From Myxococcales bacterium (lineage in GTDB: Bacteria > Myxococcota > Myxococcia > Myxococcales > Anaeromyxobacteraceae): DNA of 6,181 nucleotides. The position numbers were made by a program. The DNA lies in contig JBBQEB010000191.1 of assembly GCA_038320275.1 (NCBI GenBank), forward strand, positions 1 to 6,181, in the 5' to 3' direction. Of the stretch, positions 1 through 6,000 are shown in pieces (within the stretch, counting starts at the first letter, position 1; each line of letters starts with the position of its first letter).

Positions 1-3000
1 CGTGTAGAACGGAACGAACCTTGCGGGGGACGCCGACCTTGCACTGGGCCGGCGCGGGCCCCGCTTCGATCCCGCGCATGCCGACCAAGAGCTCTCCCGC
101 CGTCACTCCGCCCGCAGCCGTCGTTGCCGACACCGATCTCGCCGTCACCCTCGACGTGGAGCCTCGCAAGCCGCGCCTGGCATGGCAGGGAATGGACCGC
201 CGGGAGCTAACGGCTTCTGTGCCGACGCAGGTCGTTGAGATCGTGCGACCAGGTCGCGCGATGGAGCACGCGGGTGAGCTGACGGGCCTATCGGCCCGAG
301 CCGCCGCCATCGAGAAGGTCATCCCCGAGAACCGGCTGATCTGGACGAACGACAACATCGTCGCGCTCCAGACGCTCCTCGATGAGAAGGATCCGAAGAC
401 GAAGGACTACCGCTACCGCGGCAAGGTCGACCTTATCTACATCGACCCGCCGTTCATGGTGAACAACGACTTCCTCGCCGACAACGCCATCAACATCACG
501 CTTGACGAGGACGCCGGAGTCGCGGCGAGGAAGGAACCGTCGCTCGTCGAGATTCTGGCTTACAAGGACACTTGGCGGCAGGGACTCGACTCGTTCCTGT
601 CGATGCTGCGAGCGCGCCTCGTGCTCCTGAAGGGGCTTCTCGCGCCGACGGGCAGCATCTACGTCCATCTCGATTGGCATGCCGTCCATTACGTGAAGGT
701 CTTGATGGACGAAATCTTCGGGTACGAGAAGTTCAGAAACGAGATCGTCTGGCAAAGAACTGGCGCTCACAACGATCCGCAACGATACGGCAATGTTTGC
801 GATTCGATCTTATTCTACACACACGCGGACGAATACACCTGGGACCCTCAATATACGCCTTACGATGGCGACTATATCGCCGAACGGTTCCGGTCCATCG
901 AGCCCAAGACTGGAAGACGATACTGGCTCAACACTGTAACGGCTCCGGCCCACGGCCGACCGCCAACCGCCGGAGTGTTCTTTGGCAAATCGCGGCTGCC
1001 GCCGCGAGGGACGATGTGGCGGTTCACTCAGGATAAGATTGACGCTCTCATCGCGGAAGGTCGCATCGTCGCGAGCGAGAGCGGGATGCCATACATCAAA
1101 CAGTACCTGGACGAGAGCAAGGGGCGGCCGGTCCAAAGTCTCTGGACGGACATCCCGATGAGCAAGAGTGGGGCGGAACGTCTTGGATTTCCTACGCAAA
1201 AGCCAGTTGCTCTCGTCGAGCGAATCATCAGGTCCTCCTGCCCCCCGGGTGGAATCGTCCTGGACTGCTTCCTGGGAAGTGGAACGACGGCAGACGCTGC
1301 TGAACGACAAGGCCGGCGGTGGATCGGAATCGACAACGGGAAGTACCAGGTCCACCTCGCGCGGAAACGCCTTATCGAGCTTCAGGGCCAGCCGCTACCT
1401 GCGGAGAACGGGGTCGCGGAGTTCCCTCAGTGCAAGTCGTGTGGTCGGGTAGAGCGAAAAGATCGCCCTCAGAAGCTCCGCGGAGTCCACGAGGTCCGTC
1501 CCTTCACAATCGAGAACATGGGCGTGTACCAGCGTGCCGCCGAGTGGCAGGGGTTCCAGCAGCACCGCAGCGCCTACCGCGACGAGATGATCCGCGTCTT
1601 CGGCGGCGAGCCCATCGAACAGTCGATGCTGCTCCATGGCAAGAAGGGCAGCTCGTGGGTCCACGTCGGCCCACTCGACGGGCCGGTGTCGGTCGGCCAG
1701 GTCTGGGCCATCGCCCGCGACGCCCAGCGGACCAGCATGAAGTCGGTGACCATCCTGTCTGCCGATTTCGACACGCTCTCCGGGAGTGAAAAGGACGACA
1801 TCAAGAGAAAGACCGGCGTCACGGTCACCATCCGCGTCATCCCGTCCTCCGCCATCGACGAAGTGAAGCGCCGCCTCGACCTCCAGCGCCTGGACCCGAC
1901 CGTACCGGTGGAGTCGATGGCGATTCCGGCGTTCTACGCGCCGCTCTCCATCGTGCTCGACGCCGAGGCGGCCGGACGCAACGCGCACGTCAGGCTCCAG
2001 CGATGCGAGGTTGACATCGACTCGTTTATCGCGAGCCAGCGTCCCATGCTGAAGCAGGTCACCGACAAAATGACCGCGGTGGCTAAGAAGAAGGCGCAGG
2101 CCGAGAACGACAGGTGGGAGAACCGCGAGGAGGAGCTGCACGCCTGGCTCAAGAAGGCGAAGAGCTGGCAGTCCTTCATCGACTTCTGGGCGGTGGACTG
2201 GAACTACGGCCGGGTCGCGGGCGAGGACGGCAAGCCCATCTTCGTGACCGAGTGGCAGAGCTTCCGGAGCCGCGGCGGTGATGGGGACGGCGAGCTCGTC
2301 TTCACCGCGAAGTTCAGCTACCCGGCACCCGGTCAATACGTCGTGGCGGCGCGCGTGACCGATGTTTTCGGCAACGATGGCATCGCCACCGTGAACGTCG
2401 AGGTGAAGCGATGACGCTCCAGGACCAGATCGTCGCGAACCTTCGCAAGCGGGTGGACACTTGGCGTGGCTTCGGCCTCGGCGCCGCAGCCGAATCGTAC
2501 CCGGAGGACGCACCGCGCTACGAGCCCGCAGGGGACGGCGAGAAGCCGGTCTCGAACACCACGATGGCGCTCGTCCAGCACTGGTTCCGGCGAGAGCCGC
2601 ACGTCCTTGGTTTCGAGCCGCACACCTTCGCGTTCAAGTACTGGCCGCACCAGCGCCGCCTCGTCGAGACGTTCATCTACCTGCACGAGGTGGTGGGCAT
2701 TCGCCGCACGGAGGAGCTGTACCGCTTCTGCGGCGTCGAGCCGATGGGGCCACAGCGCGACCCCTGGCCCAAGCTCGGGGGCCAGCTCGCCACCGGCTCG
2801 GGCAAGACCAAGATGATGAGCCTCATCATCGCCTGGTCCTACCTGAACGCTATCTGCGAGGGCGACGAACACCTCGGGCTCGGCCGACACAGCATCCTCA
2901 TCGCACCGGGCCTTTTCGTGAAGGACCGGCTGCTCCAGGACTTCAACCCGCCATACGGTCAAACGGCGGTGTTCTTCGCCGACCCGGTCATCCCGCCGGA

Positions 3001-6000
3001 GCTGGAGAAATGCTGGGACCTCAAGGTCTATGACCCGGACACTTGCCCTCGTCAGCTCGACCCGGCCGAAGGCGCGCTCGTCGTGACGAACTTCCACCAG
3101 CTCCTGCGCGGCCGGGAGCGGCTGGAAGCGCGATTCGAGACCCCTGCCGAGCGGCAGATCCATCTGCTCTTCGAGGGTGGCGACCCGCAGAAGCTCGAGG
3201 ACGTGGGGTCGCCGCTCATCGAGCGGTTCGCGCGCTCTCGCAAGCTGCTGGTGCTGAACGACGAGGCCCACCACGTCTGGGACGAGCCGGGCCACGCGCA
3301 GTTCGAGGAGAAGGCCCGCCAGAGGGCCGGGGGCGTGGCGCCGAGGGAGGACGAGCAGGAGGCGATGGCCTGGATCCGTTCCATCCGGAAGCTGAACGGC
3401 GGGGACGGCGCGCCGGGCAGGGTCGGGCTCCAGGTGGACATGTCGGCCACCCTCTTCCAGGAGACCGGCACGCAGAAGAAGAAGGCGGGGAAGGGCAAGG
3501 CGGCGCAGGCCGCCAAGTTCAAGCCCACCGAGCTCTTCCGCCACACCGTCGTCACCTACGACCTCGCCGAGGCGATCCGCGACGGCATCGTCAAGAAGCC
3601 CATCCTGGAGCGGGTGGAGGTACGGAACGAGCGGACGAACGAGGTGCTTCCCCTGGTGCAGGTTGCGGCGCCCAACGCCTGGGAGAAGTACCGGAACCTC
3701 CTCACCACCGGCATCGAGCGCTGGAAGAAGGTGCGCGACCAGCTCGCCGACGAAGGCGACCCGCGCAAGCCCATCCTGTTCGTGCTCTGCGCGGACAGGA
3801 GGGAAGCCGCGCAGGTTGCGAACTACCTCACCTACGGCGAGGCGAGCGAGGACGACCTCGCCAGCACCAGGGCGTCGGTGAAGGGCTACCCCGACCCCAA
3901 GGCCAAAGGTCCGCTGTTCATCACCCAGGGCGCGGACGGGGTGGTTCGCTCGACGGTGGTGCAGATCCACATTGGCCAGAAGGAGGAGTCGAACGAGGCC
4001 GAGTGGGAGAAGGTCCGGGCGTCGGTGAACGCCATCGACCGGGACGAGATCCCGGATCCCGCGGGCGCCAAGGATGCCGACGGGCGGCCGCTCCTCGTCC
4101 CCAACCCGTACAACGTCGTCGTCAGCGTGATGATGCTGAAGGAGGGCTGGGACGTCCGGAACGTCAAGGTGATCGTGCCGCTGCGCACCTGCGATTCGCG
4201 CACGCTCACCGAGCAGACCCTCGGCCGCGGGCTGCGCAAGATGCACGCGCCGGAGATCGACGACGAGGGCGCGGCGCTCCTGAAGCCGGAGGAGCTCTAC
4301 GTCATCGAGCACCCGTCCTTCGCCGCCATCCTCGACCAGATTGGTGACCTGGTCGAGGAGAAGAGCAGCGACGAGATCGACCACCCGCGCGAGTACGTCG
4401 CAATCCCGCCGGTGGAGGAGGGGGAGACGCGCGAGAGGGTGGACGTTCGCCTGGTTCGCCTGGAAGGCGTGAAGCACGGGGCGCGGGATTGGCGCCAGGA
4501 CTTCGACGTGGCGAAGCTGCCGGGCGTCACGCCGCGGCTGCCGTGGCACGACCAGCTCGACGCCACGCTCATCCAGACCTGGCTCAAGGAGGCGCTGAAA
4601 TCGGCCGAGGCGGAGGGCCAGACGTTCACCCTGTCATCCGACCCCTCCTACCGCGATTTCGACCACGTCCTGGAGCAAGCGTACGCCATCCCGCTGCTGC
4701 GGGAGATGCGGGCCAGCTTCGGACACAAGACGGCGGTGAAGGGCATCGTCCAGGAGCTCCTCGAGACGAAGACCTTCAACCTGACCGCGAGCCTCCCGGT
4801 GTCGTTCGAGAGGGTGATCGCGAGCGGTCGCGGAGCCATCGCGCTCGGAAACCTGGCCCGCGCGGAGGTGGTGAGCGGCGTCACGTCGGCGCTCCTTGGC
4901 CCGCTCGCGGAGGCCATCCAGGCGTCGCACCAGGCCGCCCGGGCGGACCTTTCGGAAAGAAAGGCGTCGGCAATCGGCGGCTATCAGGCCTTGAAGCAGC
5001 ACGTCCTGGAAGGCCTCACCCGGTCCCCCTTCCAGCGCGCGGCGACCGCCAACGCGGACGAGCGGCGGGTGGCGGCGCTGGTGGACGGCGCGAAAGACGT
5101 GGTGGGCTGGGTCTACAACCACCGCGCCGGAATCGGTTACTCGATCCCGTACGTATGGCAGGGCCGCTCGGCGCGGTACTTCCCTGACTTCGTGGCGCGC
5201 GCGAAGTGGGGCAGCGTCTTCCACAACTTCATCCTGGAGGTGAAGGGCCGCCTCGACGACAAGGACGAGGAGAAGGCCCGTCGCGGCCAGCACTGGTGCG
5301 AGCTCCTGACCGAGCACGACGCCGAGCCCTGGCACTACTTGATGCTCATCGAGAACGCGGACCTCGACCGGCAGGACATCGGCTGGTGGGAGAGCTGCTC
5401 GGTGCGGTCCATCGAGGATCTGTTTCGCCGCCACGAGCGCCTGCCGCTCATCCCGCAGCCCGGTGGGACGGGGCTCGTGATCTCCGACATCGTCGAGCCG
5501 GTCGAGCAGTTCCGCGACGCGGTGCCGGTGTACGACCTCGCGGTGAAGGCAGGGGCATTCGGGGATCCCGAGCAGCCGGAGGTGAAGGGCTGGGCGCGGC
5601 TGCCTGGGCACCACCTCGACGACGACATGTTCGTGGCCAAGGTGGCGGGGCGTTCCATGGAGCCCGGAGTGGTGGACGGGGCGTGGGGCCTGTTCCGCTC
5701 GTTCCCGGTCGGCAAGGAGCCGTCACTCACTGCGCTCGACAACCGCCGGATCATCGTCCAGCTCGACGGCAAGGCGCAGGACCCGGAGACCGGGCGCTAC
5801 ACCCTCAAGCGGTGGCGGGTGACGAAGCGGGCGCCGACCGGCGAGGTCGAGGAGGTCACGCTCGGCCCCGACAACCGCGACTTCAAGCCCATCGTTCTCA
5901 CGCCGGCAAGCGGTGAGGTGAGGGTCGTCGCCGAGTTCATGGAGACGGTGGGCTGATGGCCTTGCAGCCGCCGCAGGTCTCGGTCCCGCCGGCGTTCTGG

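Follow-up and report, generated by a model that had tools for sequence, protein, structure and literature searches.

Why should a restriction enzyme end in a domain of the kind through which LexA cleaves itself? The question is raised by a contig of a Myxococcales bacterium (JBBQEB010000191.1), of which the whole stretch analysed, 6,181 nucleotides long, is called the window here. The genome-wide survey's note had described two genes in it, and both were confirmed: a methyltransferase gene with its stop at 2414, and a res gene at 2411-5956 encoding 1181 residues, the two overlapping in an ATGA. Apart from the C-terminal domain, their features are as follows.

78..2414, + strand: Mod-like N6/N4 DNA methyltransferase (778 aa from ATG78; PF01555, E 8.6e-42)
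2411..5956, + strand: Res-like helicase-nuclease ending in an S24 domain (1181 aa; start codon in the ATGA overlap with the stop of mod)
2789..4237, + strand: SF2 helicase-like motor, from sequence motifs
5021..5440, + strand: PD-(D/E)xK nuclease domain, approximately residues 871-1010 (P925-D926, E943-x-K945)

The earlier view that mod is cut by the contig end found no support. Its frame is open up to that end, with TTG21 as an alternative start, and ATG78 matches the N-termini of homologues (11 aligned); the gene is probably complete. Mod scores with both MTase_II (E 8.3e-75) and MTase_III (E 3.9e-67) in PADLOC, and its catalytic motif (DPPF, residue 123) lies ahead of its SAM-binding motif (FLGSG, residue 398), which we take to be the beta-class order. 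Of the 37 closest loci, 32 also have a mod homologue upstream of res; the remaining five loci start at or near a contig end.

In Res, the motor motifs are a Walker A sequence (ATGSGKT, residues 127-133), a DEAH box (284-287), SAT (345-347) and a motif VI (QTLGRGLR, 602-609). The claimed invariance of the helicase and PD-ExK motifs held up in a larger set, where the Walker A motif (from A127), DEAH, SAT and GRGLR are unchanged in 120/120 homologues, as are the PD-ExK residues, with H288 kept in 118. The model of the nuclease domain resembles TnsA (Z 8.2, rmsd 3.0, 105 residues aligned). The Pfam, NCBIfam and PADLOC scores given before were all reproduced, among them a PADLOC REase_III match at E 3.3e-13. 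Against the BPTD_3080 model (NCBIfam NF046055), Res scores 235 bits over residues 6-985, where the curated cut-off is 800 bits; by this measure, Res is a relative of that family and not a member.

Like the Type III systems EcoP15I and EcoP1I, the locus has adjoining mod and res genes in that order within one operon, with overlapping stop and start, an N6/N4 amino-methyltransferase, and a Res protein in which SF2 motifs are followed by a C-terminal PD-(D/E)xK nuclease. Judged by sequence, the window is a two-gene Type III-like restriction-modification (R-M) system. It differs from EcoP15I and EcoP1I in that Mod has about 340 additional C-terminal residues, and Res has an extra S24 domain. Type III enzymes are defined by methylation of one strand of an asymmetric site, and by ATP-dependent cleavage that requires two inverted unmodified sites (PMC12707154). 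The literature passages covered describe no control of a Type III enzyme by self-cleavage. The extra domain is not an artefact of assembly, since 118/120 homologues carry it in frame. Its features are listed here, a slash marking the predicted cut.

5516..5953, + strand: S24 (LexA/CI/UmuD C-terminal type) peptidase domain, approximately residues 1036-1181, from Pfam, fold and profile
5549..5554, + strand: predicted scissile bond Ala1047-Gly1048, in the context YDLAVKA/G (subfamily consensus LxAAA/G)
5654..5656, + strand: predicted catalytic Ser1082, in GxSME (117/120 homologues; 146/150 representatives of the S24 subfamily)
5714..5749, + strand: insert about 6 residues long that is particular to this Res family, with D1110 and R1113 after it (each 118/118)
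5807..5809, + strand: predicted catalytic Lys1133, in YTLKR (114/120 homologues; 144/150 representatives)

The proposed LexA-type fold of this tail was upheld by several approaches. Its model (pLDDT 93) has 22 Foldseek matches at E<=1e-3 (best E 6.2e-6), those listed being all LexA or lambda repressor, and aligns with Thermotoga maritima LexA over 130 residues (Z 12.4, rmsd 3.4). Pfam S24 matches residues 1039-1174 at E 7.9e-4 in whole Res, and at E 4.9e-6, above the cut-off, with the tail alone. A search of solved structures required a profile, which finds LexA at E 6e-5; the single sequence gave only two chance matches there (E 0.8-1.5). S1082 and K1133 align with the GxSM and TVK motifs of LexA, and an Ala-Gly site lies in the N-terminal loop. 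The tail resembles LexA, lambda CI and UmuD (MEROPS S24) in its fold, in the Ser-Lys dyad and in having its site, Ala-Gly or Cys-Gly, where the domain begins. Unlike those proteins, it is joined to a 1030-residue restriction enzyme in place of a helix-turn-helix (HTH). It also contains insertions, its RecA pocket is changed, E152 has no counterpart, and solved structures are about 20% identical to it. No HTH was matched in Res by Pfam or NCBIfam profiles, and on this evidence Res is not a repressor.

A1047 had been called invariant and G1048 conserved in at least 90%, which overstated the conservation of the site: A1047 is kept in 106/120 homologues and G1048 in 94/120. Ala-Gly, Ser and Lys are jointly intact in 88 of the 118 tail-bearing homologues. 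Across the wider S24 subfamily, site, Ser and Lys are intact in 118 of 141 scorable representatives at 50% identity (107 with Ala-Gly, 11 with Cys-Gly), and the P1 residue exchanges between Ala and Cys. From these patterns, the cleavage site is under selection across the subfamily.

This exchange bears on whether the tail is cleaved at all. The tail might act uncut, either by mediating dimerisation or by tethering the nuclease to RecA filaments and so bringing it to recombination intermediates. The C-terminal domain of LexA is by itself sufficient for dimerisation (PMC11787620), and the model of nuclease plus tail (pTM 0.87) suggests that the tail is packed in a fixed manner on the nuclease domain. 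The Res-family insert, which is missing in all of the best 120 of 1480 other long S24 carriers, forms with the D1110/R1113 region a candidate contact with that domain, and with the predicted packing suggests a structural fit. A structural role or autoinhibition would be just as compatible with such packing. However, a site retained in 118/141 diverse carriers, with an Ala/Cys swap at P1, would be needless in a purely structural domain, and relatives without the tail exist. We consider a role without cleavage rather unlikely.

Of the self-cleavage reading in the genome-wide survey's note, the fold, the dyad and the site stand. A fusion unique to this Res family is rejected. The same S24 domain turns up on R-M and defence enzymes of many unrelated kinds: Type I HsdR and HsdS, Type ISP, Type IIG, other Type III Res, AlwI, DpnI, Mrr, OLD, and DrmA-like and Schlafen-type helicases, with XRE repressors a minority. 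Among 150 representatives, 76 could be assigned, 71 of them to an R-M or defence-type partner and 5 to an HTH. At least 1480 long proteins carry the cassette, and the best 120 of these 1480 comprise 57 HsdR, 22 ISP, 13 other Type III Res, 9 IIG, 7 DrmA-like, 6 Schlafen-type and 4 other helicases, 1 HsdM-like protein and 1 unassigned. In two HsdRs, it is a clean insertion within the motor, directly ahead of Walker A, where a cut would split nuclease from motor. One of 72,556 plasmid records holds a carrier and none of 50,697 phage records does, and a protein atlas yielded only S24 and putative S24 clusters. Genome by genome, carriers were sampled in the host's phylum. Among genome ORFs examined, 9/26 are stand-alone XRE-HTH repressors with the same S24 subfamily and an AAA/G site, which are transcription regulators; scanning of their neighbours found no R-M genes. 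These repressors are a likely source of the cassette, with a tree that leaves the direction unset. Overall, the distribution indicates that the S24 subfamily is a mobile cassette and not a feature of one family.

In the query's own branch of the Res family, clade A, the site is less secure. Ala-Gly is kept in 27/51 members, compared with an intact site in 66/68 members of clade B, and by parsimony G1048 changed 17 times in clade A, to six different residues, but once in clade B. Ser and Lys persist in 47/51 clade A members despite the loss of the site; this repeated loss from a domain that retains its fold and dyad is a further point for a tail that acts uncut. Dyad loss accompanies site loss in 3/26 cases and a retained site in 2/93 (p 0.07, with kin that are not independent). 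Relative to an equally constrained core, the clade A tail evolves about 1.5 times faster than that of clade B. In the closest genome relative (L001, 83% identical), the enzyme is intact but has lost the tail to a frameshift caused by a deletion of 17 bases, and S24 is missing from four relatives at 51-52% identity, so the tail is dispensable. A cultured clade A carrier whose site is intact is also known (WP_426745957.1). Site or dyad is missing from 7/33 tails in genome loci. The switch appears to be decaying in clade A, and the site losses, the faster tail, the frameshift and the defective tails in genome loci could further mean that the tail is a decaying passenger in the query's lineage, working elsewhere but no longer under selection here. 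On the other hand, the query retains site and dyad, the tail is present in 118/120 homologues, and of the 37 tail positions that clade B conserves, 14 are unchanged in clade A. A mere passenger is distinctly unlikely in our estimation.

If the tail is cleaved, the cut could turn the enzyme on or off. The genome-wide survey's note had allowed both directions; of the two, switching off agrees better with the architecture. Our preferred reading, to which we give slightly less than even confidence, is a damage-triggered off-switch. Mod would methylate, and Res would translocate and cut, as their sequences and folds suggest. Damage, including the enzyme's own cuts in the chromosome, would give rise to RecA-ssDNA filaments, and by homology with LexA a filament would stabilise the cleavable form of the tail, in which Ser1082 and Lys1133 would cut Ala1047-Gly1048. 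The predicted cut lies C-terminal of the nuclease domain, which would be left whole, and would take off only the last 134 residues. In most carriers, the new C-terminus would be x-Ala-Ala, like the ClpXP degrons of ssrA and LexA, and the cleaved enzyme would be degraded, or would lose a domain required for its assembly. The outcome would be restriction alleviation built into the enzyme.

Several observations accord with destruction. P2-P1 is Ala-Ala in 103/143 representatives, the host tmRNA tag ends in LAA, the host LexA site is VAA/G, and the host has two ClpX-like genes. In LexA-like proteins, ClpXP degrons are buried beside the site (PMC5742171), and a need for proteolytic shut-off of restriction following damage is established (PMC3874165, PMC12707154). 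A degron would suit a partner of any fold, where autoinhibition would have to evolve afresh for each. Against the off-switch stand the site losses and the faster tail in clade A, the dispensability of the tail and the predicted fixed packing, and the query has Lys at P2, as in clade A, which is by sequence a poorer degron match. Since Ala-Ala also precedes the site in HTH carriers and in LexA itself, it may have been inherited and not selected as a degron. Given the predicted Val-Lys-Ala end and the apparent decay in clade A, the query's copy of the switch may be weak. The repeated site loss could be an escape from phages that induce SOS as a means of disarming the host.

The opposite direction would make the tail an autoinhibitor, which RecA filaments on phage DNA would cause to be cut, turning on the nuclease for late or abortive defence. 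The apparent packing of the tail against the nuclease in the model would fit this, as would a cut that leaves helicase and nuclease whole, and some partners, such as OLD and the Schlafen-type and DrmA-like helicases, might come into play at a late stage of infection. Yet R-M enzymes need to act on incoming DNA before RecA filaments form. The cassette also occurs on enzymes whose folds are unrelated, HsdS among them, and within the motor of HsdR, and uncleavable clade A variants would be dead enzymes, whereas their cores are conserved like those of clade B. We regard activation by cleavage as quite improbable.

The off-switch further supposes that the trigger is RecA. The host genome has two recA genes, both with the L2-loop Phe. 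Six LexA positions form the pocket for RecA F203 (bioRxiv 10.1101/2023.10.30.564768), and by motif register only, the query residues there are Y1041, V1045, F1074, A1076, V1116 and Y1130. In this register, five of the six positions fall in mostly hydrophobic columns (F1074 in 148/150), while the V79 column is more mixed. The pocket is remodelled, Tyr taking the places of V79 and V153, and E152 of LexA is not conserved; the trigger may therefore be something other than RecA. Modelling the tail together with two copies of host RecA gave a score of 0.01, where the mark is 0.32 and controls were not folded; this weighs neither way on binding. A LexA-box pattern that we take to be that of Myxococcus, with two mismatches allowed, matches upstream of host lexA; this weakly validated pattern was absent upstream of both recA genes and in all 21 regions upstream of mod, so that transcriptional SOS control is simply unsupported on this basis. 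On sequence and model, RecA-stimulated cleavage of the tail is plausible.

Another possibility is that the tail cuts, in itself or in trans, without RecA as the signal. A phage protein or ssDNA could take its place, or slow constitutive turnover could set a limit to how long the enzyme lives. The bulky Tyr residues in the pocket are in line with this, given that a bulky residue filling the RecA pocket is part of a hyperactive LexA mutant (bioRxiv 10.1101/2023.10.30.564768). One long carrier, P0209, is labelled as from Euryarchaeota, a group not known to have RecA proper, and its presence there would also point away from RecA. However, all other characterised LexA-like regulators are reported to use RecA, and the host's two RecA genes encode the L2-loop Phe. 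Such a signal seems very improbable to us.

The off-switch resembles known restriction alleviation in its proposed outcome. With EcoKI and EcoAI, alleviated by ClpXP, and the Lon-dependent iREN of Pseudomonas aeruginosa, the restriction subunit is likewise destroyed when the chromosome is at risk. In those routes, the protease recognises the translocating enzyme, independently of LexA cleavage and RecA (PMC11109961; bioRxiv 10.1101/2024.10.21.619520), which counts against the off-switch. Here the sensor would be built into Res and would detect RecA filaments without an intermediary. More broadly, and somewhat more tentatively than for the single locus, we propose that a portable RecA-filament sensor, an S24 cassette like that of XRE repressors, was grafted repeatedly onto enzymes of Types I, ISP, IIG, IIS, III and IV and onto defence helicase-nucleases, where self-cleavage would expose a ClpXP degron or split the motor.

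Searches of the open literature, with subscription papers, REBASE notes and supplements outside this scope, listed no paper that describes a restriction enzyme with an S24 domain, and a 2025 R-M review mentions neither S24 nor LexA nor peptidase. Although restriction alleviation is a phenomenon decades old, the reviews consulted leave open how the cell marks the enzyme for shut-off. If the proposal is true, a self-cleaving RecA sensor on at least 1480 long proteins would be a direct and genetically simple answer in many environmental bacteria, and would tie restriction alleviation to the SOS signal directly at the protein level. S24 biology would widen from repressors and UmuD to defence enzymes, phage and gene transfer would be predicted to gain an opening in these hosts upon DNA damage, and the cassette would provide a natural degron tag that damage induces.

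Finally, several of the restriction enzymes carry misleading annotations, such as 'SOS-response transcriptional repressor LexA' or 'S24 family peptidase', because the S24 cassette is fused to them.

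The locus consists of two + strand genes that overlap by ATGA:

up to 2414, + strand: N6/N4 methyltransferase (Mod); PF01555 E 8.6e-42, PADLOC MTase_II E 8.3e-75 and MTase_III E 3.9e-67
2411-5956, + strand: Res, 1181 aa; BPTD_3080 over residues 6-985, Peptidase_S24 over residues 1039-1174

On three sequence-level criteria the locus resembles Type III restriction-modification systems, and it would be expected to work like one. The Mod reading frame is open up to the contig end, where the genome-wide survey's note had considered the gene cut; however, the mod gene is probably complete, since ATG78 lines up with homologue N-termini (11 aligned). 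The long C-terminal extension of Mod (window 1395-2411, residues about 440-778) has no Pfam match; it contains a CxxC motif and an alpha/beta region and ends in a beta-rich segment. Res scores 235 bits against BPTD_3080 over residues 6-985, where the cut-off is 800 bits, and by score is not a member of that family. These values, like the presence of a Mod-like methyltransferase before Res, agree with the survey.

Searching with Res gave 4717 homologues among 7999 candidates scored. In all of the best 120, Walker A (from A127), DEAH, SAT, GRGLR, P925-D926 and E943-x-K945 are invariant, which extends the survey's observation on the DEAH and PD-ExK motifs, and 118 carry the tail. The nuclease part structurally matches TnsA (Z 8.2).

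The C-terminal tail is an S24 domain by fold, catalytic dyad (Ser1082 and Lys1133) and site (the predicted scissile bond Ala1047-Gly1048). As the survey had noted, Pfam Peptidase_S24 matches residues 1039-1174 (E 7.9e-4 with the whole protein); the tail alone gives E 4.9e-6, above the cut-off. The tail as modelled (pLDDT 93) resembles LexA: Foldseek gives 22 matches at E<=1e-3, the best at E 6.2e-6, and superposition on LexA yields Z 12.4 and rmsd 3.4 over 130 aligned residues. Conservation among the best 120 of the 4717 homologues upholds the earlier figure of at least 90% for S1082 (117) and K1133 (114), whereas A1047 (106), previously called invariant, and G1048 (94), previously put at 90% or more, are less constant. 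In LexA, the pocket for RecA F203 is formed by V79, V82, F111, L113, V146 and V153, according to bioRxiv 10.1101/2023.10.30.564768. By motif register only, the Res counterparts are Y1041, V1045, F1074, A1076, V1116 and Y1130, a candidate pocket that is mostly hydrophobic yet remodelled. Docking of the tail on the nuclease domain is possible, because a two-domain model of both has pTM 0.87 and the tail contains an insert private to this Res family with invariant D1110 and R1113. Such docking would keep alive two alternatives to an off-switch, a structural role and autoinhibition.

The S24-tailed Res is a real feature, and both domain labels are already attached to these proteins in databases; the survey had noted that annotation pipelines call some homologues 'S24 family peptidase' or 'type III restriction enzyme'. 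Literature searches, covering listings, abstract openings and matched passages, found nothing on S24-fused restriction enzymes, and the matched passages of PMC5714182 and PMC5512222 hold nothing relevant. Within the reach of these searches, the architecture has been recorded yet not interpreted.

The tail is a mobile cassette. Searched against 1.84 billion representatives, it gave 895 matches at E<=1e-3, of which the best 150 were used. Partners were assigned to 76 of these by Pfam (run on the 114 representatives that are 200 aa or longer) and by BLAST with N-terminal portions; the other 74 comprise 27 with longer N-termini and 47 short fragments. The 76 include 13 of this Res family, 11 Type ISP, 9 other Type III Res, 7 MrfA/DrmA-like, 6 HsdR, 5 HsdS, 5 Schlafen-type helicases, 5 HIT-helicases, 5 XRE-HTH and 2 AlwI, with single cases of DpnI, Mrr, LlaJI, PLD, HNH, OLD, UvrD and methyltransferase. 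Because many representatives are fragments, we also classified full-length carriers: the best 120 of 1480 profile matches (E<=1e-20, among 8000 scored) are 57 HsdR, 22 ISP, 13 other Res, 9 IIG, 7 DrmA-like, 6 Schlafen-type, 4 other helicases, 1 HsdM-like and 1 unassigned. Two proteins, each a single and possibly chimeric case, are P0245 (239 aa), with the cassette after an endonuclease III-like Fe-S fragment (E 7e-4), and P0129 (1622 aa), a Res-S24 protein lengthened by a subtilase domain.

The subfamily occurs in 37 of 401 genomes of the host's phylum, in none of six others of its genus, and is nearly absent from the plasmid and phage collections searched. Among 26 phylum ORFs scanned there are 12 DNA-enzyme fusions, 9 HTH repressors, 3 with S24 only and 2 without a family; one HsdR-S24 fusion sits in a complete hsdM-hsdS-hsdR operon. 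Stand-alone XRE-HTH and S24 repressors of this subfamily occur in Myxococcota (L114-L121 and L130, with two in tandem in L116), with no R-M genes among their scanned neighbours. Two divergent carriers in defence islands (L128:5929-8103 and L129:7727-8842) sit immediately downstream of mcrBC, their cleavage loop lost or with an insertion. A tree built from 108 labelled tails and the host LexA (8 labels set by hand inspection, with short and unassigned tails omitted) shows both lineage structure and repeated partner shuffling: the partner label changes 45 times for 21 labels, against a shuffled mean of 81, and one HsdS tail has an AlwI tail as its sister, both on short branches.

To judge from sequence, the cleavage machinery is kept across the subfamily. 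Among the 141 representatives (best 150 of 895) that have a residue in every one of the four columns, 107 have Ala-Gly and 11 Cys-Gly, each with Ser and Lys; Ala/Cys exchange here parallels LexA and UmuD. Site and dyad are intact in 118 of the best 120 of 1480 long carriers, a figure inflated because these rank nearest the consensus. Nine of the 141 have Ala-Thr; a sub-branch with Ala-Thr and an intact dyad (P0146, P0147, P0153, P0199, P0263 and others, with AlwI, DpnI, Mrr, Res and HsdR partners) may represent altered specificity or an uncleavable form.

The reading we favour, tentatively and a little short of probable, is that the tail is a RecA-triggered off-switch: RecA would trigger self-cleavage at Ala1047-Gly1048, the cut would shed 134 C-terminal residues and expose a degron end, and degradation of the cleaved enzyme would turn restriction off. 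Of this, the fusion, fold, dyad, site, geometry and distribution are observed, and enzymatic activity, RecA dependence, degradation and the direction of the switch are inferred. We favour it because the bond lies after the nuclease domain, the predicted new end is x-Ala-Ala in 103 of 143 representatives (best 150 of 895), the cassette is inserted in the motor of two HsdRs, and most partners belong to the ATP-driven restriction motors, a class whose shut-off after damage is documented (PMC3874165, PMC12707154). A degron that works on any partner would also explain one cassette on unrelated folds. In 117 of the best 120 of 1480 long carriers no more than 30 residues separate the S24 domain from the C-terminus. 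In the HsdRs P0328 (residues 307-466) and P0357 (301-460) it is a clean insertion at the motor start, just before Walker A, where cleavage could hardly activate the enzyme; both are apt test cases for switch direction. ClpXP degrons are buried beside the cleavage site in LexA-like proteins (PMC5742171). The host tmRNA tag ends in LAA, and the host encodes two RecA, one LexA and two ClpX-like proteins (recA and clpX-like genes on contigs C18, C121, C71 and C120). The known alleviation routes, ClpXP acting on EcoKI and Lon acting in P. aeruginosa, do not require LexA cleavage or RecA, according to passages of PMC11109961 and bioRxiv 10.1101/2024.10.21.619520. The cassette is a candidate new control principle.

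Clade B, like the HsdR and ISP carriers, exemplifies the proposed switch better than the window itself, because this Res would be left with a Val-Lys-Ala end and the predicted site is being lost in its clade. A FastTree of the helicase-nuclease core, rooted at the midpoint and built from 119 sequences after P0004 and P0050 were excluded for their truncated tails, divides the Res family into clade A (n=51, including the query) and clade B (n=68). Clade B has Ala-Gly in 64 members and Cys-Gly in 2, and clade A keeps Ala-Gly in 27, mostly has Lys at P2 and retains the dyad in 47 of 51. By parsimony G1048 changed 17 times in clade A, a count possibly inflated by weak internal tree support, versus once in clade B, to six different residues; this is the highest count among 37 tail positions conserved in clade B. 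Counted per site and unit of branch length, the core changes equally often in the two clades (helicase 0.65 in A and 0.63 in B), but the tail changes more often in A (1.44 versus 0.93). Gly-to-Asp at the corresponding site abolishes LexA cleavage (PMC11787620). In the closest genome relative a 17-base deletion puts the tail out of frame and leaves the enzyme before it intact. The tail is present in 33 of the 37 closest genome loci, with site and dyad intact in 26 of the 33; the four without it are gammaproteobacteria-like or Pseudomonadota (51-52% identity), and none of 41 more distant loci has it. Two close Res relatives, L029:7980-11348 and L035:7905-11315, have another C-terminal domain of ~120 aa in place of the S24 tail.
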